A DNA stretch of 64,000 nt, taken from NCBI GenBank assembly GCA_964596615.1, contig CAZQUN010000002.1, forward strand, positions 11,332 through 75,331. Reading direction: 5' to 3'. Source of the DNA: an uncultured Candidatus Saccharibacteria bacterium. GTDB lineage: Bacteria > Patescibacteriota > Minisyncoccia > Portnoybacterales > UBA2143. The position numbers were made by a program, and so were the translations under genes. The notes beneath the pieces are model-generated. The model saw only the letters and a program-made list of their open reading frames with translations, made no database searches and was not told where the DNA came from. Shown here in pieces: positions 3,195-56,123 of this stretch. The first letter of the stretch is position 1. The number at the start of each line of letters is the position of its first letter.

Positions 3195-4502
3195 ATGCCT
3201 AAAAAAACCAAAACAACAACTCCAAAAAGGAAAAGATCCTTTCAGGCGCCGAAAGGAACAAGAGATATTCTACCCCAAGAACAGGTCTATTGGGAAAAAG
3301 TCAGACAGGTAATTTCTAAAACGGCTAAAACCTACGGCTTTGACCGGATTGATACTCCGGTAATAGAGGACGTTGATTTGTTTATCAGAGGAACTGGCGC
3401 AACAACCGATATTGTCCAAAAAGAAATGTATACTCTTAGAACAAAAGGAGGAGATAAACTAGTCCTTCGTCCGGAATTCACCCCGGCCATTATCAGGGCC
3501 TATCTTCAAAACGGACTTTCTTCTTTGCCACATCCAATTAAACTCTATAGTATCGGACCGGTCTTTCGCTATGAAAGATCTCAAAAAGGCCGCTATCGAC
3601 AGCACGAACAGGCTAATTTTGAAATCTTTGGCGAGAAAGACCCGGTCTTAGACGCTCAATTAATCCAATTATTTTTCTCCGTTATCAAAGGAGTTGGCCT
3701 TAAAAATGTCATTACCCAGATTAACAGTATTGGTTGTCGTCAATGCCGACCAGCCTATCGAAAGAAACTGGTTAATTTCTATCGGAGGAAAAAAAAGGAA
3801 ATTTGTTCTGATTGCCAAAAACGGCTTCTACAAAATCCTTTAAGATTACTTGATTGCAAAAATGAAAAGTGCGTTTTAATAGCCAGAGAAGCGCCCCAGA
3901 CAATTGATAATCTTTGTCCGGAATGTCATGACCATTTTAAGAATGTTCTTGAATATCTCGATGAAGTTGAAATTCCATACATTCTTAATTCCAATCTGGT
4001 CAGAGGACTGGACTATTACACCAAAACCGTTTTTGAGGTCTGGCCGGAAGAAGAAGATGGCCGACAAATTGCTCTGGGCGGCGGCGGTCGTTACGATGGA
4101 CTGGTTAGGCTCCTCGGTGGCAAAGATACGCCCGGGACTGGTTTTGCTATGGGATTGGACAGGATAGTTAACCTGATGATAGAAAAAGATGTTAAAGTTC
4201 CTTCAAGGAATTCATCCCTAGTTTTTCTGGTCCAATTAGGAGAATTAGGCAAGAAAAAATCCTTAAAATTATTTGAGGAATTAAGACAGGCCGGCATAGA
4301 AACATCAAGTTCGTTTAGTAAAAATACAATCAAGAGTCAGTTGAAAATTGCCGACAAGATGAATGCTCGTTTTGCTCTAATTCTGGGACAAAAAGAAGCC
4401 CTGGATGAAACTATCATTATCCGGGATATGGCTTCCGGCAGCCAGGAAACCGTTTCCCTGGAAAAGGTTGTTAAAGAAATTAAAAAAAGAGTTAAAAAGT
4501 AA
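3195..4502 (+). CDS. hisS: histidyl-tRNA synthetase
   Basis: FQAPKGTRDILP motif, class II aaRS motifs, C-terminal anticodon-binding domain; 435 aa. Confidence 0.9.
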   Translation: MPKKTKTTTPKRKRSFQAPKGTRDILPQEQVYWEKVRQVISKTAKTYGFDRIDTPVIEDVDLFIRGTGATTDIVQKEMYTLRTKGGDKLVLRPEFTPAIIRAYLQNGLSSLPHPIKLYSIGPVFRYERSQKGRYRQHEQANFEIFGEKDPVLDAQLIQLFFSVIKGVGLKNVITQINSIGCRQCRPAYRKKLVNFYRRKKKEICSDCQKRLLQNPLRLLDCKNEKCVLIAREAPQTIDNLCPECHDHFKNVLEYLDEVEIPYILNSNLVRGLDYYTKTVFEVWPEEEDGRQIALGGGGRYDGLVRLLGGKDTPGTGFAMGLDRIVNLMIEKDVKVPSRNSSLVFLVQLGELGKKKSLKLFEELRQAGIETSSSFSKNTIKSQLKIADKMNARFALILGQKEALDETIIIRDMASGSQETVSLEKVVKEIKKRVKK

Positions 4503-7982: not shown

Positions 7983-8768
7983 ATGTCAATAAGAATAAGA
8001 AGCAAAAATGCTATTCTAGAACTATTAAAAGATGGTGTTAGTTTTGAAAAAATTATCTTAGCTGATGATCTAAAGCAGGATGATTTAACAAAAGAGATTT
8101 TATCAATAACAATCAGCCAAAATGTGCCGATTGAAAAGACGCCTCGTCGCAGAATGGGCAAAGGAAGAAGTGGAAAAAGCCAAGAAGTTTTGGTTGGTTT
8201 TTTGGCTCCTAAAAATACCTGGTCTTTCAAAGACCTTTTAGACCATCTTTTAAAAGAGAATCAAGACCCATTTTTCCTTTTAATAAACAGAGTTGAGTAT
8301 CCTAATAATATCGGTGCTATCGCCAGAACAGCCTTTGCAGCTGGCGTAAATGGTTTAATCTTTCAGGGAGAAAAAGATTACTTTCTCAATGAAGAAACTG
8401 TTCATTTCTCAATGGGCGCTATCGCCAGAATTCCTCTTGTAAAAATGAATATTTTTGAAGCCTTAAAAGAACTTCAGAAGAATGGCATTAGAACCTTCTC
8501 TATTGAAATGGAGGGTCTGTCTTGTTTTGAAGAAAATCTTTCTGGTCCAGTTGCCTTTATTCTAGGCGCCGAAGGAAGAGGAGTGTCAGAAAAAATATCG
8601 AATCGATGTGATAAAAAAATATCTATTCCAATGCGCAAGGGAATAAATTCACTTAACGTCAGCATCAGCGCCGCTATTATCATCTATGAAAAGATTCGTC
8701 AAGAAGGTGTAATCTATTTAACGAAGAATGGTCAAGGTTGTGCTTTTGACAAAAAACCGGAGAAATAG
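7983..8768 (+). CDS. SpoU/TrmH-family RNA 2'-O-methyltransferase
   Basis: NIGAIARTAFAAGVNGLIF, ILGAEGRGVS and NVSISAAIIIYE SPOUT-class motifs. Confidence 0.8.
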   Translation: MSIRIRSKNAILELLKDGVSFEKIILADDLKQDDLTKEILSITISQNVPIEKTPRRRMGKGRSGKSQEVLVGFLAPKNTWSFKDLLDHLLKENQDPFFLLINRVEYPNNIGAIARTAFAAGVNGLIFQGEKDYFLNEETVHFSMGAIARIPLVKMNIFEALKELQKNGIRTFSIEMEGLSCFEENLSGPVAFILGAEGRGVSEKISNRCDKKISIPMRKGINSLNVSISAAIIIYEKIRQEGVIYLTKNGQGCAFDKKPEK

Positions 8769-38092: not shown

Positions 38093-38572
38093 ATGTATAC
38101 AAGCCACAAGGTTTCAGCTTCTTTCGCCTTGGTTAACTTACTTTCCAACCTTTTTCTTTCGCAATTTGGTTTAGGAGATGTTAGTTTAACCGAGGAAAAT
38201 GAGTTGTCTCTTGATAAGTTGGTCACTCTCCAAGGCCAGGCCTTGGTTCAGTCAGCTAGTCCGGATACGCCAGTAGTAATTTCTCAGAGATGGGTTACTG
38301 TTACGGCTTATTCTTCTACGCCTGACCAGACCGACTCAACTCCGTTTATCACCGCTTCAGGAACAGATGTTCGTGACGGTGTCGTAGCTTGTAACTTCTT
38401 AAGATTTGGTACCAGAGTCCGATTTCCTCACCTTTACGGAGATAAGATTTTCGTAGTTGAGGACAGAATGGCTCTTAAAAACAGCCATAAAGTCGACATC
38501 TGGTTCTCATCTCGAAGCCAAGCTAAAGAATTCGGAGTTAAGACACTTAAAGTAGAGGTTCTAGAAACCTAA
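38093..38572 (+). CDS. 3D-domain (MltA-like / YabE-type) cell-wall-associated protein
   Basis: WVTVTAYSSTPDQTDSTPFITASGT...VVACNFLRFGTRVRFPH...VVEDRMALKNSHKVDIWF resembles the 3D-domain consensus. Confidence 0.5.
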   Translation: MYTSHKVSASFALVNLLSNLFLSQFGLGDVSLTEENELSLDKLVTLQGQALVQSASPDTPVVISQRWVTVTAYSSTPDQTDSTPFITASGTDVRDGVVACNFLRFGTRVRFPHLYGDKIFVVEDRMALKNSHKVDIWFSSRSQAKEFGVKTLKVEVLET

Positions 38573-38573
38573 A

Positions 38574-38604
38574 GAGACCCCGTTATCCGGGGTCTCTTTG
38601 TTTT
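38574..38604 (+). terminator. intrinsic terminator
   Basis: AGAGACCCCGTTATCCGGGGTCTCT followed by TTGTTTTGT. Confidence 0.65.
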
Positions 38605-38605
38605 G

Positions 38606-38688
38606 TGCCGCGGGTGGGACTCGAACCCACATGGACAAAATCCACAGAATTTTAAGTTCTGCGCGTAAGCCAATTCCGCCACCGCGGC
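38606..38688 (-). tRNA. tRNA-Leu (anticodon TAA), type II
   Basis: Anticodon stem CAGAA/TTCTG, loop CTTAAAA, long variable arm, T-loop TTCGAGT. Confidence 0.8.
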
Positions 38689-38695
38689 ATTCTTG

Positions 38696-38767
38696 AGGCC
38701 AGGAGGGGAATTGCACCCCTGTAGACGGTTTTGCAGACCGTTTCCTAAACTACTCGGACACCTGGCC
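38696..38767 (-). tRNA. tRNA-Cys (anticodon GCA) with an atypical T-loop
   Basis: Acceptor GGCCAGG/CCTGGCC, anticodon loop CTGCAAA, T-arm AGGGG-TGCAATT-CCCCT (G at the position normally occupied by U55). Confidence 0.6.
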
Positions 38768-39001
38768 GTATTTTCTTTTTAATATTTCTTTCTGTTGGCC
38801 GGTTTTCAAAAATCGTTCACGTCTTACCGCATCGCTGCGCGAATTAAATTCTTCTTTATCAAGTAGTTGCCATGGCCTATATGCTTTTGTTGATTTTGCT
38901 TTACCTTTGTTATGTAAGTTAAATCGTCTAACAATATTTTCTGTGCTGCCAACATAAATATCATTGTTTTTTAAACTTCTTAAGATATAAACAAAATACA
39001 T
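38750..39001 (-). CDS. GIY-YIG nuclease-domain protein (small, stand-alone)
   Basis: MYFVYILRSLKNNDIYVGSTENIVRRFNLHN...KAYRPWQLL. The ORF runs through the acceptor stem of tRNA-Cys and stops at a TAG in its D-arm. Confidence 0.7.
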   Translation of the reverse strand: MYFVYILRSLKNNDIYVGSTENIVRRFNLHNKGKAKSTKAYRPWQLLDKEEFNSRSDAVRRERFLKTGQQKEILKRKYGQVSE

Positions 39002-39066
39002 GATTATGTTTTGTGTCCCTTCGGGACATCTCCCGTAGGGAGACAGACCGCTGCCTAACCACTCGG
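39002..39066 (-). pseudogene. truncated tRNA-like 5' fragment (type-II D-arm, Tyr-like up to the anticodon loop) directly abutting the GIY-YIG start codon
   Basis: GGTCTCGTGGCCGAGTGGTTAGGCAGCGGTCTGT, then no complementary anticodon, T or acceptor strands. Confidence 0.45.
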
Positions 39067-39101
39067 CCACGAGACCTTAAATATATTCTACCACACTTTC
39101 C

Positions 39102-39437
39102 CTATTTTTCAACCCTTCTTAAAACTTCTTCTAATTCCTGGGCTTTGACTTCAACCTTATCGATTTCAAAAATCATCTTAGGAACCGGCTTCATATGGAG
39201 TTTCTTATTCAATTCCTGCTGAAGGTCAAAAATATTTCTTTGAATAATTTTCATTACCTCTTCGCCCTTGTCCGTCGGCATGAGAGTAATTTTAATTTTC
39301 GCCTGTCTTAAATCAGGCGAAGTATCAACGTTAGTAATCGTGACCAAAACATTACTAAAATCAACTTCTTTTAAAAGTAATTGGCTGATTTCATGACGAA
39401 GAAGTTGATTAACTTTTTCAATCCTTAAGGATGTCAC
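39102..39437 (-). CDS. rbfA: ribosome-binding factor A
   Basis: MTSLRIEKVNQLLRHEISQLL consensus; conserved infB-rbfA order. Confidence 0.85.
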   Translation of the reverse strand: MTSLRIEKVNQLLRHEISQLLLKEVDFSNVLVTITNVDTSPDLRQAKIKITLMPTDKGEEVMKIIQRNIFDLQQELNKKLHMKPVPKMIFEIDKVEVKAQELEEVLRRVEK

Positions 39438-45329: not shown

Positions 45330-45415
<86 letters not shown>

Positions 45416-45417
45416 TT

Positions 45418-46047
45418 TTATATTTTTTTAATTTTTTGGGCAACTTTTTTAACTTGTTTTTTCCAATCATTACCAGTATCTATTTCTGCCAAAAGGGGAA
45501 TACGGAGTTTCCGTAAAATAAATCTGCCGCCTTGTTTATTTTCCCATCGGTAATGATGAGGCGTTCTTCGCCACATTTCCCGGACTGCGATAGTATTGTC
45601 TTTAAACAAATCACGGCTAGGGTTATACTTTGTTTTTACCAGTCGTTCTATCATTACATCTCTGTCAGCGATAGTCCGGATATAGAAAACTTTTGCCTGG
45701 AATTTTTTGGCTTTTTCTTCCAGTTTTTTTCTTTTCTGCGAATCAACGAAATCCGAACATAGAATTACATTACCTTCCTTTTTAAGCACATGCAGGGCGA
45801 CTTTTTCAGAAACGCTTCCGATTTGCTCGTAGCCCTGTTTTTGTTTCCTCAAAGCGACTCGAATCGCATCAGCGACAATAACAGTTGCGTTAATCTGTTT
45901 AGTTAGTTCTCCAGAAACGATAAGTTTTCCAGAGCCGATTAATCCAATCAGAGCAATAACAATTGGTCTTTTTGTTTTTCGTTTGGTAATTCTTAACTGA
46001 CTAATAAATTTGTCAGTTACTTGTTTGATAATTTTTTGTTTTTTCAT
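45418..46047 (-). CDS. P-loop kinase-like protein (AAA_33-like), wedged between two tRNA genes
   Basis: Start at MKKQKIIKQ; Walker A LIGLIGSGK. The longer ORF in the track extends spuriously into tRNA-Val. Confidence 0.5.
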   Translation of the reverse strand: MKKQKIIKQVTDKFISQLRITKRKTKRPIVIALIGLIGSGKLIVSGELTKQINATVIVADAIRVALRKQKQGYEQIGSVSEKVALHVLKKEGNVILCSDFVDSQKRKKLEEKAKKFQAKVFYIRTIADRDVMIERLVKTKYNPSRDLFKDNTIAVREMWRRTPHHYRWENKQGGRFILRKLRIPLLAEIDTGNDWKKQVKKVAQKIKKI

Positions 46048-46060
46048 GTTTTTCCTCTCC

Positions 46061-46137
46061 TGGTGGGCGGTGTAGGAGTCGAACCTACGGCCTTCTCGGT
46101 GTAAACGAGACGCGCTAACCAACTGCGCCAACCGCCC
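46061..46137 (-). tRNA. tRNA-Val (anticodon TAC), CCA encoded
   Basis: GGGCGGT acceptor, anticodon stem TCTCG/CGAGA, loop TTTACAC, T-loop TTCGACT, CCA. Confidence 0.8.
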
Positions 46138-52992: not shown

Positions 52993-53675
52993 GATAAGGT
53001 TTTAATAATTTCCTTTAAATCATCAGGAAGTTCTGAATTAAACTCCATCATCTTACCACTTGGTAATTTAATTTTCAAGGCAGTAGCGTGAAGAAATTGC
53101 CTTTTTAAATTAGATGGAGGGATTTGTCTTTTGAATTTGTATTGGCTGTCTCCGGCAATTGGATGGCCAATTGAAGCCAAATGGACTCTAATTTGATGGG
53201 TCCGGCCGGTTTTGATTCCAACCTCTAAAAGAGTAAAATTCTTGAAATATTTCAAAACAGAATATTCTGTCCAGGCCTTTTTTGATTTTTCATCCAAGAG
53301 GGGACTTCTTTTTTTTCTGTCTTTTTTAGAAAAACTAATTGATTTGGTAATTGTTCCTTTTTTATCCTTAATTTTTCCAAAAACCAATGCCAAATATTTT
53401 TTAACAACCTTTCTTTCCTGAAATTGTTCTTTTAAGAAGTCAAAAGAAGAATTATTCCTGGCAATAATCATCAGGCCGGAAGTATCTTTATCCAAGCGAT
53501 GGACAATACCAGGTCTTAATTTATCCTCGCCAACATTTTTAATCTCAGGAAATTGGTTAATCAATTGGTTAACTAAAGTATCTTCCTGTTCTGATTTAAT
53601 CGGATGAACAGTTAATCCGGCTGGTTTTTCTATAACAAGAACATCTTGGTCCTGGTAAATAATCTTTATTCTCAT
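52989..53675 (-). CDS. RluA-family pseudouridine synthase
   Basis: [14 protein letters not shown] catalytic Asp motif; start taken at MRIKIIYQD so the gene abuts tRNA-Ala. Confidence 0.8.
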
Positions 53676-53676
53676 G

Positions 53677-53748
53677 TGGACCAGAAGGGAATTGAACCCT
53701 TGGCCTCCTGATTGCAAAACAGGTGCTCTACCACTGAGCTACTGGCCC
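53677..53748 (-). tRNA. tRNA-Ala (anticodon TGC)
   Basis: GGGCCAG/CTGGTCC acceptor with G3:U70; anticodon loop TTTGCAA; T-loop TTCAATT. Confidence 0.7.
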
Positions 53749-53822: not shown

Positions 53823-53897
53823 TGGTGGGCTCAGTAGGGATTGAACCTACGACCTCGTCGATGTCAACGACGCACTCTACCACTGAGCTATGAGCCC
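53823..53897 (-). tRNA. tRNA-Val (anticodon GAC), CCA encoded
   Basis: GGGCTCA acceptor, anticodon stem CGTCG/CGACG, loop TTGACAT, T-loop TTCAATC, CCA. Confidence 0.8.
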
Positions 53898-54142
53898 GAG
53901 TTTTTGTCAACTAACCACCTAACATAACTCCTTCTTCTTTTTGATTTAACCTGGTATTCTCTTTTTCTTGCTTCGCTTAGTGTTTTGTATTCTTCAGAAT
54001 ATATTAGTTTCCAAGGTCTCTTGTAGCGGGTAGCTATCGTTTTACCAATATTATGTTCTCCTAGTCGTCTACGCAGATTGTTTGTGCTCCCATAGTAGTA
54101 AGAGTTATTCTTTTGTGATTGTAGAATGTAGAAATGATGCAT
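53888..54142 (-). CDS. GIY-YIG nuclease-domain protein (paralog of 38750..39001)
   Basis: MHHFYILQSQKNNSYYYGSTNNLRRRLGEHN...YKRPWKLI. The stop TAG lies inside the tRNA-Val(GAC) D-arm. Confidence 0.7.
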   Translation of the reverse strand: MHHFYILQSQKNNSYYYGSTNNLRRRLGEHNIGKTIATRYKRPWKLIYSEEYKTLSEARKREYQVKSKRRRSYVRWLVDKNSGS

Positions 54143-54204
54143 TTTGAACCCATGACCTCCCCGCAGTACTGCGGGGCGCTCTAAACCAACTGCGCCAACC
54201 ACCC
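54143..54204 (-). pseudogene. degenerate tRNA-Val(TAC)-like 5' fragment fused to the GIY-YIG start
   Basis: GGGTGGTTGGCGCAGTTGGTTTAGAGCGC is near-identical to the 5' part of tRNA-Val(TAC) at 46061..46137. A palindromic CCCCGCAGTACTGCGGGG replaces the anticodon arm. A T-loop-like GGGTTCAAAATG contains the ATG; there is no 3' acceptor strand. Confidence 0.5.
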
Positions 54205-54211
54205 TTGTCTG

Positions 54212-54283
54212 TGGACGCGCCAGGATTCGAACCTGGAACCACTTAGATATAAGCTAAGAGCTCTGCCATTGAGCTACGCGTCC
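54212..54283 (-). tRNA. tRNA-Ile (anticodon TAT, i.e. UAU)
   Basis: GGACGCG/CGCGTCC acceptor, anticodon stem CTTAG/CTAAG, loop CTTATAT, T-loop TTCGAAT. Confidence 0.65.
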
Positions 54284-54299
54284 TTGAAAATAATATACC

Positions 54300-56123
54300 T
54301 TAAACCTTCCTTTTCATCAAGCGTTCAAATTCTTTTCTCTCAATAGTTTCTTTTTTAATTAATTGTTCGGCGATTTGGTCTAATTTCTTTCTTTTTTCAG
54401 ATATAATCTTCTTAGCAGTATTAAAAGCGTCGTCAATGAATTTAGCAACTTCCTTATCAATTTGAGCAGCAGCTTCTTCGGAATAATCTTTTTCTGTAGC
54501 GATTTCTCTGCCAAGAAAAACCATTTCATCTTTTCCGCCAAAAGTCCTTGGCCCCATTTTTTCACTCATGCCATATTTAGTTACTAACTTTCTGGCTAAA
54601 TCAGTTGCTTTTTGCAGATCACTTGAAGCGCCGGTAGTTAATTCATTGAAAACAATTTTTTCTGAGACATAGCCGCCTAAAAGAACGGTTAGTTCGTCAA
54701 TGTATTCGGAACGAGTATGAAGATGCCTGTCTCTAATCGGAAGTTTTAAAGTGTAGCCGGCAGCCGGACCGCGGGGAATGATTGAAACCTTTTGGATTGG
54801 GTCAGTATTAGGTAAAGAAGCAGCAGTCAAAGCATGACCAGCTTCATGGTAAGCGGTAATTTCTTTTTCTTTTTCAGAAAGGACATGGCTTTTTCTTTCC
54901 GGCCCAAGGATGACTTTTTCAATTGATTCTCGCAGTTCATCCTGACTAATTTTTTTCTTGTTTCTTCTGGCAGTCAGAATAGCGGCCTCGTTGACAATAT
55001 TAGCCAGGTCAGCGCCGGAAAATCCAGGCGTTCTTTCGGCAATTTCTTTTAATTCAACTTTCTCTTCAAGGGGTTTGTTTCTGGCATGGATTTTTAAGAT
55101 TTCTCTCCGGTCTTTTAGGTCAGGCAAATCAAGGACAACTCTTCGATCAAATCGGCCGGGACGAAGAAGGGCCGGGTCTAGAACATCCGGTCGGTTAGTC
55201 GCAGAGATTAATATAATGCCGGTATTGGGGTCAAAGCCATCCATTTCAACCAGAATCTGATTTAAGGTTTGTTCTCTTTCATCATGGCCGCCGCCAAGAC
55301 CGGCTCCTCTTTGTCTCCCAATGGCATCAAGTTCGTCAATAAAGATTAATGCCGGAGCATGTTTTTTAGCGGTTTGGAATAGGTCCCGGACCCGACTTGA
55401 ACCAACCCCGACAAACATTTCAACAAATTCTGAGCCAGAAACAGAGAAGAAAGGAACATTAGCTTCAGAGGCGACTGCCCGGGCAAGAAGAGTTTTTCCG
55501 GTTCCGGGAGCGCCAACCAAAAGAACTCCTTTCGGAATTTTAGCTCCGAGATTAATAAATTTCTTTGGATTTTTCAAAAAATCAACAATTTCATATAATT
55601 CCTGCTTAGCTTCTTTTAAACCGGCAACATCTTTGAAAGTAACCCGGTTTTTCTTATCCTTCGGGTCAACTAGACGGGCTTTGGAACGGCCAAAGCTAAA
55701 AGCCTGCATTTGTCCTCTTTGGGCGCCGCGGAACATAAACCAGAAAAAGAAACCGATAATGAGCAAGGGGAGAAGGAAAGGAAGAACTGCTCCAGCCCAG
55801 AAGAAAAGGCCGCTTTCTCCCTTAATTTCCAGATTGACCAGTTTTAATTTTTCCTGGTTAAGGCCGTAGTTTTTTAAAGATTCAGTCAAAGAAGCCTCTT
55901 TTTCCTTGGTCGCTTCTTCTTTGGCGCCGTCTTTTAATTCAATTTCAAGTTTGTCGCCCCGGATAACAATAGTTGAAACTTCTTCATTGTTAATCCGTTC
56001 AACCAATTGACTCAAAGAGATTTCTTCCGGTTTTTGACCTGATTCATTAAGCAAAGCAAAAAGCCCGGCAATAGTCAGAAATGCCAAAAAAGCAATCAAT
56101 AGATTTTTGAGTAAGTATTTCAT
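54300..56123 (-). CDS. ftsH: ATP-dependent zinc metalloprotease FtsH
   Basis: Two N-terminal TM helices; Walker A GAPGTGKT; SRH; HEAGHAL zinc site. Confidence 0.95.

Follow-up and report, generated by a model that had tools for sequence, protein, structure and literature searches.

The window analyzed here, by which we mean the whole 64,000-nt stretch of DNA to whose positions all coordinates refer, carries on its minus strand a tRNA array that begins after the stop codon of ftsH and contains, among its genes, a small open reading frame (ORF) for a protein of the GIY-YIG nuclease family together with the remains of a tRNA. The features of this strand follow one another in the order intact tRNA-Ile(TAT), the first gene of the array (54211..54283, 71.7 bits), a spacer of 7 nt (CAGACAA, counting from the discriminator base), a tRNA-like piece of 61 nt, a domain-only GIY-YIG ORF of 84 amino acids (53888..54142, PF01541 E 9e-18) and intact tRNA-Val(GAC) (53823..53897, 70.4 bits), after which come tRNA-Ala(TGC) (53676..53748) and then rluA. 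Sequence comparison divides the tRNA-like piece, hereafter called the relic, into a 5' part of Val type, GGGTGGTTGGCGCAGTTGGTTTAGAGCG (54177..54204), equivalent to the 5' strand of the acceptor stem plus the D arm (nt 1-26), and a 3' part, AGGTCATGGGTTCAAA (54143..54158), equivalent to the variable loop, the 5' strand of the T stem and the first bases of the T loop. On inspection, the place of the anticodon arm between these two parts is taken by a perfect palindrome of 18 nt, CCCCGCAGTACTGCGGGG (54159..54176), and the relic is truncated in its T loop by the ATG of the ORF at 54142. At the other end of the ORF (...AAC TCG GGC TCA TAG) the last 10 nt, which include the stop codon TAG, overlap the gene for tRNA-Val(GAC). 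A preliminary description of this DNA had given the same order of features on the minus strand, with the palindrome, the T-loop ATG and the stop codon inside the intact tRNA, and all of them are found where it had placed them.

The insert at this locus measures about 320 bp and contains the GIY-YIG ORF as its sole gene, with no integrase. A search for direct or inverted repeats of at least 9 nt flanking the insert found none, and no separate 3' half of a tRNA follows the ORF, which runs directly into the complete tRNA-Val(GAC).

Empty and filled sites in relatives

Contigs syntenic with this region (ftsH ... tRNA-Ala-rluA-rplS) were located through homologs of RluA, and filled loci through homologs of the ORF; labels of the form L186 denote the homologous loci or contigs from relatives. 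In four of the syntenic relatives (L186, L188, L189 and L190) tRNA-Val(GAC) lies 1-11 nt after tRNA-Ile(TAT), with no ORF, fragment or tRNA-Val(TAC) between the two genes. Filled versions of the same locus are present in the window, L001, L003-L006, L008 and L205, the ORF of L001 being 87% identical to that of the window. Because the four empty-site relatives pass directly from tRNA-Ile to tRNA-Val(GAC), the fragment, the palindrome and the ORF constitute a polymorphic insertion, found in some genomes and missing from others, between two tRNA genes that would otherwise adjoin.

As to the identity of the disrupted tRNA, the preliminary description regarded the relic as nearly identical to the 5' third of the intact tRNA-Val(TAC), a gene annotated on the minus strand at 46061..46137 that has no adjoining GIY-YIG ORF. 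The likeness itself is confirmed by an exact run of 17 nt at 46133-46117 (blastn-short E 2.6e-4 within the window) and by 25 matches among 29 positions of the 5' part, but a derivation specifically from Val(TAC) is not, since the Val(GAC) alleles of the empty-site relatives, which begin GGGCGGTTGGCGCAGTTGGTTAGCGCGC, fit slightly better (26/29). For the whole relic the matches amount to 39/45 with empty-site Val(GAC) vs 36/45 with the Val(TAC) of the window; for the relic of L001 the corresponding figures are 39/44 and 33/44, and its comparison with the allele of L186 and L188 gives 27/28 in the 5' part and 12/16 past the palindrome. In L188 the two tRNAs, Val(GAC) and Val(TAC), are identical across nt 1-27. 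The relic moreover occupies exactly the position of the resident tRNA-Val(GAC) in genomes with the empty site. On account of these match counts and of this position in the array, we consider with moderate confidence that the Val-type relic derives from a disrupted resident tRNA-Val(GAC), the confidence being moderate because the anticodon itself is gone from it. An origin from tRNA-Val(TAC) is less likely, by the small margin of the match counts.

The same array carries other insertions in the relatives. Unrelated genes lie at differing points between ftsH and rluA in L186 (1818-2384), L189 (1483-2334) and L190 (1388-2056), comprising a methyltransferase-like gene, a UDP-glucose dehydrogenase-like gene and a gene with a faint helix-turn-helix match; the array thus looks like a general insertion hotspot.

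The palindrome and the GIY-YIG protein

Across 7 contigs, 11 copies of a 16-nt core of the palindrome, CCCGCAGTACTGCGGG, agree at all 16 positions, while the ORFs that accompany them diverge to 49% identity (range 49-87%). This invariant core stands beside tRNA-Val relics in the window, L001, L003 and L205, beside a tRNA-Pro relic in L002, which is identical at 28 of 29 positions to the tRNA-Pro that follows the ORF, and beside a tRNA-Asp relic in L178, which is identical to tRNA-Asp at 27 of 27 positions. Because the core remains unchanged beside Val, Pro and Asp relics despite the divergence of the ORFs, palindrome and ORF travel as one unit, and the tRNA parts of the relics derive from the target. 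With one base added, the 16-nt palindrome measures 17 nt and so exactly equals an anticodon arm (nt 27-43) in length.

Part of the tRNA sequence also seems to move. A tRNA-Val 5' sequence of the type that we call gamma, GGGC(T/C)CATAGCTCAGTGGTAGAG, is fused to the 3' end of the ORF in the window, L003 and L205; in this small sample the gamma allele follows the ORF in all three despite their differing relic types, whereas L001 has another allele. In L205 the gamma copy is itself a palindrome-bearing relic, and the intact tRNA-Val there is of the resident type. The fusion shared across differing relics and the gamma relic of L205 suggest that adjoining tRNA sequence is carried along when the ORF moves, and that a redundant tRNA copy, whichever it is, may become a relic provided that one stays intact.

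Additional palindrome-bearing 3' relics lie past the intact tRNA in L003 and L178, those of L178 having a hairpin in the T loop. The region of L178 at 8434-8625 consists of such extra tRNA-Asp 3' relics, with hairpin(s) in the T loop, arranged as two tandem units of 97 nt without an ORF, and an extra tRNA-Leu 3' relic with one or two T-loop hairpins, likewise without an ORF, is found past the intact gene in L201 (around 1601-1680). Such hairpin-only inserts may be ORF-less derivatives of the element or a separate mobile part. The palindrome could confer immunity on the relic, bind the protein or stabilize the 5' end of the mRNA, and the invariance of its sequence argues for recognition by a protein over a merely structural role.

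When metagenomes were scanned for the 16-nt palindrome, most of the 120 matches fell in GC-rich contigs or at the tips of unrelated longer hairpins, without GIY-YIG or tRNA context, and are treated here as chance matches or hairpins of terminators; the informative matches were those in L178 and L138 alone. In six contigs of low GC content (L068, L076, L083, L100, L101 and L122) the core is centred in longer perfect palindromes with unrelated arms and has neither a GIY-YIG gene nor a tRNA in its vicinity; in so large a collection, terminator-type hairpins that match by chance are the probable explanation.

There is one other relative of the ORF in the window (38750..39001, minus strand, described in the next section), and the two proteins, of 84 and 83 amino acids, score 64.7 and 62.0 bits, respectively, against PF01541 (cut-off 22.6, residues 1-71). 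They are indeed paralogs, as had been proposed, with 41% identity over 75 residues (tblastn E 7e-16). Residues Y5, Y16, G18, R26, H30 and E62 are invariant or nearly so in two alignments of the family; by analogy with I-TevI we take them to have catalytic roles, E62 presumably being metal-binding. The closest solved structures are the UPF0213 proteins EF2693 (1ywl, E 2.3e-8) and BH0048 (1zg2, E 2.8e-7), followed by SLX1 (E 0.02), and the build is that of a single domain, with nothing beyond the GIY-YIG catalytic domain and no separate DNA-binding region. The PHROGs collection gave no match for the ORF at 54142-53888 and a weak homing-endonuclease match for its paralog only; PADLOC returned marginal matches (E about 0.003), again for the paralog only, and no convincing defence-system family, and the only NCBIfam matches were to TIGR01453, below threshold.

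The ratio of nonsynonymous to synonymous substitution (dN/dS) is 0.06 between the ORFs of the window and L001 and 0.05 between the paralog and its counterpart in L191, values which indicate purifying selection, and the synonymous difference (pS) between the window and L001 ORFs, 0.57, equals that of the adjoining ftsH. Since dN/dS is low and pS is that of ftsH, the protein is functional and has long been inherited vertically in this lineage. In L003 (3048-3090; also in L004-L006 and L008) one A has been lost from a poly-A run after codon 11 of the ORF, and gene callers give the frameshifted gene a product of 97 amino acids without the first motif, its start lying within the tRNA relic; this type of copy is probably decaying.

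With regard to expression, promoter-like sites lie upstream of tRNA-Ile and 9 nt before the tRNA relic of the paralogous locus, none adjoining the ORFs. The site upstream of tRNA-Ile, TTGATG-17-TATATT (54292..54320, minus strand), a match to the consensus only, is the only candidate promoter for the unit of tRNA-Ile, ORF and tRNA-Val. Because the ORF has no recognizable promoter of its own and is situated inside a tRNA operon, transcription from the tRNA promoter is the likely arrangement, and the ORFs of both loci appear to use tRNA promoters. The suggestion that the tRNA fragment might itself act as promoter or RNase P signal finds no support, given that the promoter-like sites stand upstream of the whole unit and that the 3' acceptor strand needed by RNase P is absent from the fragment. 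Neither does RNA folding lend it a role in processing: among five 5' leaders (z-scores -1.2 to -2.0) no larger conserved leader structure or tRNA-like fold emerged beyond the hairpin, apart from which the predicted fold is unremarkable. Cleavage by RNase P at the 5' end of the intact tRNA would remove the stop codon of the ORF at both loci of the window; many of the related ORFs end before the tRNA.

The tRNA-Cys locus and the wider family

The paralogous locus, also on the minus strand, repeats the geometry of the tRNA-Val locus, in agreement with the preliminary description: a 5' piece of a tRNA and two hairpins precede an ORF of 83 amino acids (38750..39001, PF01541 E 6.5e-17), the stop codon TAG of which lies 18 nt inside tRNA-Cys. 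The piece corresponds to nt 1-34 of tRNA-Cys (GGTCTCG...GGTCTG, 39044..39076) and ends in the anticodon loop, where the hairpins TCTCCC-TAC-GGGAGA and TGTCCC-GAA-GGGACA occupy position 34/35 (39014..39043). A promoter-like site with a TG element, TTGAAA-16-TAGAAT (39085..39112), ends 9 nt before the relic; downstream lie the intact tRNA-Cys(GCA) and tRNA-Leu(TAA) (38605..38767, tRNA-Cys being at 38767-38695) and a terminator-like hairpin after tRNA-Leu (38570-38600).

The clade of this ORF is large, with 190 matches at E<=1e-8 in many lineages of Patescibacteria. Its syntenic relatives (infB-rbfA ... tRNA-Cys-tRNA-Leu), namely L201, L191 and L193, all have one build, in which nt 1-34 of tRNA-Cys are followed by two hairpins at 34/35, the bases of the tRNA that come next (CAAAAC), the ORF and an intact tRNA-Cys. 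The first hairpin has the stem TCTCCC/GGGAGA in the window and TCTCGC/GCGAGA in both L191 and L193, and the second has TGTCCC/GGGACA in the window, TCCCGC/GCGGGA in L191 and TCTGGC/GCCAGA in L193. Because both stems covary, the structure of the hairpins is the conserved feature of the tRNA-Cys clade. L191 has two units in tandem. In L193 the relic extends to the T loop before the ORF and its 3' end reappears past the intact tRNA, the outer tRNA-Cys thus being split in its T loop by the ORF, the intact tRNA-Cys and about 130 nt.

A scan at the species level (one genome per species), based on an alignment of 10 sequences, extended the comparison to 59 loci with 57 full-length ORFs. These are mostly from Patescibacteria, with further members in Omnitrophota, Kiritimatiellaeota, Ignavibacteriaceae and Bacteroidota, the last including the cultured Flavobacterium sedimenticola and Flavilitoribacter nigricans. 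An intact tRNA on the same strand lies within 150 nt of 27 of the 57 ORFs (47%), and a tRNA or detectable fragment accompanies 30 of the 57; as a control, any tRNA-like match was found in 8 of 200 random 372-nt pieces (4%) of the window, which is rich in tRNA genes. Together with the empty sites in syntenic relatives and the presence of at least 20 anticodon types beside ORFs of the family, this enrichment bears out the earlier proposal of a mobile, tRNA-linked GIY-YIG cassette by which the 5' part of a tRNA is duplicated or remodelled; homing proper, i.e. the cleavage of alleles that lack the ORF, is inferred.

Fragment detection by blastn-short proved too conservative, missing repeats of 11-14 nt and the relic of the window itself, and for this reason an alignment test of cognate vs non-cognate tRNAs was added. 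When the junctions are so aligned, 15 of 20 loci with a tRNA just downstream show a better match of the upstream piece to the 5' part of that tRNA than to any non-cognate one (Wilcoxon p 4e-5). The locus at 54142-53888 is one of the five exceptions, which fits an ORF accompanied by tRNA-Val sequence of gamma type. Given these statistics and the recurrence of the arrangement in independent assemblies and species, the geometry of ORF and tRNA piece is more than a matter of chance.

The duplicated tRNA pieces vary in extent, from 11 to 66 nt, and the breakpoints of ORFs and hairpins fall in the D arm (11/12) for the second ORF of L001, L015, L016 and L043, in the anticodon loop (34-36) for the clade of the tRNA-Cys locus, L018 and L025, and in the T loop (range about 55-59) for the window, L001, L003, L193, L178 and L201. 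In L025, L018 and L193 both halves of the outer tRNA are present, the split being at anticodon position 35/36 or in the T loop. Several diverged paralogs occur per genome at different tRNAs, three of them within 1 kb in L001. Viral contigs, when searched, yielded one distant relative only, and a phage origin of the ORF clade is not supported.

A mirror image of the geometry is present in Flavobacterium sedimenticola (L060, 1400-1800) and Flavilitoribacter nigricans (L056, 240-700), where an intact tRNA is followed by the GIY-YIG ORF and then by a tRNA piece that starts from the D loop and has its anticodon arm replaced by a hairpin (e.g. TCCCGATTCCATCGGGA). The phenomenon extends, therefore, beyond Patescibacteria and beyond metagenome-assembled genomes.

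The second ORF of L001 (3406-3700, 84 amino acids) lies inside tRNA-Ala after nt 11 and is bracketed by inverted repeats of 18-20 bp (CCCTCACCTAAAAAGATT / AATCTTTTTAGGTGAGGG), the insert being accompanied by an 11-nt direct repeat, GGGCCAGTAGC, of the 5' end of tRNA-Ala. The tRNA-Ala(TGC) of the window, beginning at 53748, is the clean and uninterrupted counterpart of this insertion site, i.e. an empty site for a second type of cassette that is filled in L001. ORFs of the class bracketed by inverted repeats are found also away from tRNAs, in L019, L024 and L050. In L001 (3921-4916) and L190 (2501-3481) RluA carries a third GIY-YIG domain, fused in frame at its N-terminus, which gives proteins of 326-331 amino acids; repetitive sequence (tcgactcg... 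/ ...cgaagtcgaggg) precedes this domain. The rluA gene of the window, which starts near 53675 directly after tRNA-Ala, has no such fusion.

Interpretation and relation to known systems

We regard it as probable that these loci harbour a free-standing homing-type element, made of a GIY-YIG domain alone and living in tRNA operons, of which the cleavage activity, the target site and the role of the palindrome are the parts that we infer. At the locus of the window a resident tRNA-Val, most likely tRNA-Val(GAC), would have been invaded by a small selfish cassette formed by the palindromic hairpin and the GIY-YIG gene, the hairpin taking the place of the anticodon arm and the ORF cutting the tRNA off in the T loop, while the intact tRNA-Val(GAC) directly 3' of the ORF would let the cell keep the tRNA. 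The nuclease would break tRNA genes that lack the ORF, perhaps at a conserved feature of the cloverleaf such as the T loop, as in the case of SegB of phage T4, and recombinational repair would then copy the ORF together with the hairpin and a stretch, variable in length, of the adjacent tRNA. The short homologies that tRNA genes share could permit occasional jumps to a new type of tRNA and create partial duplications, and since loss of the last intact copy would be lethal, only events that leave one intact tRNA would survive. The several copies per genome, the frameshifted copy, the tandem units of L191 and the tRNA-Ala cassette confined to L001 are typical of the life cycle of a selfish element.

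Several points weigh against this interpretation. A protein of about 84 residues without a DNA-binding domain, unlike SegB and I-TevI, leaves site specificity unexplained. Where the relic and the intact neighbour of the ORF were compared, the two are often identical (L002, L178, L013 and L025), and because of this identity the escape of the intact gene from cleavage is puzzling if the target lies in the tRNA. The low dN/dS and the ftsH-like synonymous divergence speak for long vertical co-inheritance, which also fits a domesticated host gene, and for about half of the homologs the nearest 150 nt contain no tRNA. Moreover, the empty sites could be precise losses and not the ancestral state, and only 3-6 nucleotide positions, together with the place in the array, decide between Val(GAC) and Val(TAC) as the source of the relic.

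A more speculative possibility, which we consider unlikely though worth stating, is that the minimal GIY-YIG protein and its invariant hairpin form a self-contained system that recognizes the cloverleaf DNA of tRNA genes by shape, and not through a long sequence, and cuts extruded stem-loops, the hairpin being its module for binding or immunity. It would fit the location of breakpoints in the D arm (11/12), the anticodon loop (34-36) and the T loop (about 55-59), as well as the exact match of the palindrome plus one base to the 17 nt of the anticodon arm. The cutting of extruded stem-loops would then parallel that of branched DNA by the SLX1-like relatives of the nuclease, redundant tRNA copies would become hairpin-bearing relics and jumps among any tRNA species would be possible.

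Returning to the homing-type element, its competitors differ in what they leave unaccounted for. The ORF might be a domesticated host gene, a cellular nuclease of UPF0213/Slx1 type, for instance an enzyme of structure-specific repair, that is co-transcribed with tRNAs, the relics then being by-products of old tandem tRNA duplications and not of what the ORF itself does. Its dN/dS of 0.05-0.06 and a synonymous divergence equal to that of ftsH, which imply stable inheritance since the split of the window and L001, would agree with this, and so would the lack of a promoter of its own, the non-mobile nature of its nearest solved relatives (UPF0213 proteins and SLX1) and the single distant relative in viral contigs. 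We nevertheless judge a host gene rather improbable, for presence and absence differ among closely syntenic genomes, diverged paralogs sit at different tRNAs of one genome (three within 1 kb in L001), one lineage has a frameshifted copy, the same palindrome and ORF clade recur in unrelated tRNA contexts with locally derived relics and a host gene would have no reason to truncate a copy of the tRNA every time. A transposon-like miniature element, in which hairpins or inverted repeats are mobilized by an enzyme encoded elsewhere, duplicating the target as they insert, and the GIY-YIG ORF is a passenger in the hairpin loop, would account for the class of paralogs bracketed by inverted repeats of 16-21 bp (CCCCCTCAC... 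/ ...GTGAGGGGG), some of which lie away from tRNAs (L019, L024, L050), for the 11-nt direct repeat of the tRNA-Ala 5' end in L001 opposite the clean empty site of the window and for the ORF-less hairpin inserts in the T loops of tRNA relics in L178 and L201. It is improbable nonetheless for the loci considered here, because both copies of the window lack flanking inverted repeats and a short target duplication, no transposase was seen in the loci, the tRNA duplications of 11-66 nt are variable, unlike a fixed target-site duplication, and the sequence of the hairpin tracks the ORF clade, which suggests a joint function.

An intron-containing or split tRNA, the fragment and a 3' part of which would be joined into a functional tRNA through splicing, whether by protein enzymes or a group I ribozyme, comes to mind since Patescibacteria have group I introns in the anticodon loops of tRNAs (PMC13011429), and the outer tRNAs of L025, L018 and L193 are indeed split with both halves present. 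We find this reading very improbable and have rejected it: a scan of 35000-56000 against Rfam at E<=1 gave no match to group I or group II introns, returning only 13 tRNAs and chance matches (it missed the tRNA fragments themselves), the ORF of the window enters a complete tRNA-Val(GAC) of 70.4 bits with no 3' half, the anticodon is replaced by a tight hairpin and an intact copy of the same tRNA is always present. As tRNA genes are common integration sites at which partial tRNA duplicates can arise, the relic could also be thought of as an ordinary pseudo-tRNA or the remnant of an integrase-type attachment (att) site that lies beside an unrelated small ORF by coincidence. Such a coincidence is hardly credible, since the insert of only about 320 bp has no integrase, the duplicated part is the 5' end of the tRNA and not the 3' end, and the geometry recurs across many species and tRNA types in statistical association with the ORF.

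Among known systems the homing-type reading finds its closest parallel in SegB of phages T4 and T6, a GIY-YIG enzyme encoded by a free-standing ORF among tRNA genes that relatives lack in their otherwise homologous tRNA regions. SegB recognizes the T-loop motif GGTTCRANTCC of tRNA genes and spreads with flanking tRNA genes (PMC2330249); its homologs are over-represented near tRNAs of many isotypes, and it drives segmental duplication of tRNA plus segB through microhomology shared by the tRNA's 5' end and segB's 3' end (PMC13096335). Like SegB, the present ORFs are not tied to one tRNA isotype, and they may likewise spread with flanking tRNAs. The target of SegB includes the T-loop motif, the place where the relic of the window stops, and its tandem duplications by microhomology resemble the overlap of ORF and tRNA and the tandem units of our loci. 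The ORF of the window lies outside any intron or intein and is absent from the homologous locus of close relatives. SegB is longer than the 84-amino-acid ORFs and, to judge from other Seg and I-Tev enzymes, extends past its catalytic domain. It is also phage-borne, whereas the catalytic domain stands alone here and is chromosomal, in Patescibacteria and a few other phyla, and loci of SegB are not described as leaving relic tRNAs in which a conserved hairpin replaces the anticodon arm. The UPF0213/COG2827 proteins (EF2693, 1ywl; BH0048, 1zg2) share the size and single-domain build of our ORFs and are their best structure matches; to our knowledge neither they nor SLX1, which acts with a partner on branched DNA, have been described as mobile or tRNA-linked.

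In the same host group, the candidate phyla radiation (CPR), GIY-YIG ORFs occur in non-intron insertions of rRNA genes, mostly at the tips or bases of stem-loops (PMC11270868). Those insertions resemble the present ones in combining such ORFs with structural-RNA genes while belonging to neither intron class, but their targets are rRNA genes and their authors doubted homing (PMC11270868), whereas here tRNA genes are the targets, an intact copy is kept and a relic remains. Group I introns in tRNAs of Patescibacteria concern the same phylum and comparable insertion points, including anticodon position 35/36, and a few carry genes for homing endonucleases; they differ in that no ribozyme is detected here and the tRNA is kept through a second complete gene and not by splicing, and the intron-borne endonucleases reported in tRNA-Asn of Patescibacteria are of HNH and not GIY-YIG type. 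A mitochondrial mobile endonuclease ORF in atp6 of Allomyces reportedly brings along a replacement for the end of the gene, the old end persisting as a pseudogene. That case is similar in that a GIY-YIG ORF moves with a copy of part of its target gene and the displaced part stays as a relic, and different in its organelle host, its protein-coding target and its lack of a hairpin module.

The association of SegB-type enzymes with tRNAs in phages, the GIY-YIG insertions in rRNA genes of the CPR and the group I introns in tRNAs of Patescibacteria are thus already known. Our literature search, which had little coverage of subscription journals so that an earlier description is possible, found no report of domain-only GIY-YIG cassettes in bacterial chromosomes that have clade-specific hairpins and leave tRNA relics with a replaced anticodon arm. 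If the proposed interpretation is true, Patescibacteria, which have about one copy per tRNA gene, would host as widespread inhabitants the smallest plausible homing-type elements, a domain of about 84 amino acids plus a hairpin, which live inside tRNA operons and remodel them repeatedly, and the association of SegB with tRNAs would extend from phages to bacterial chromosomes. The elements would then account for some allele replacement and pseudo-tRNAs in genomes of Patescibacteria, and would explain many genes annotated as 'GIY-YIG nuclease family protein' as well as over-long gene calls that run into tRNA fragments in metagenome-assembled genomes. They would also pose a tractable biochemical question, namely how a bare GIY-YIG domain finds its target and what the invariant palindrome does. 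In annotation, tRNA relics overlooked by tRNA finders and ORFs with their stop codon inside a tRNA are to be expected.

Two further observations concern other tRNA genes of the window and its relatives. In L188 a GIY-YIG ORF of 93 amino acids (3811-4179) begins 1 nt past tRNA-Ser(CGA); the tRNA-Ser(CGA) of the window (45330-45415), unlike that of L188, has no adjoining GIY-YIG ORF. Between this gene and tRNA-Val(TAC) is wedged a gene on the minus strand (45418-46131), mechanically listed as an ORF of 237 amino acids beginning inside tRNA-Val(TAC), the real start of which is likely the ATG 13 nt past the CCA end of that tRNA (ggagaggaaaaacATG).

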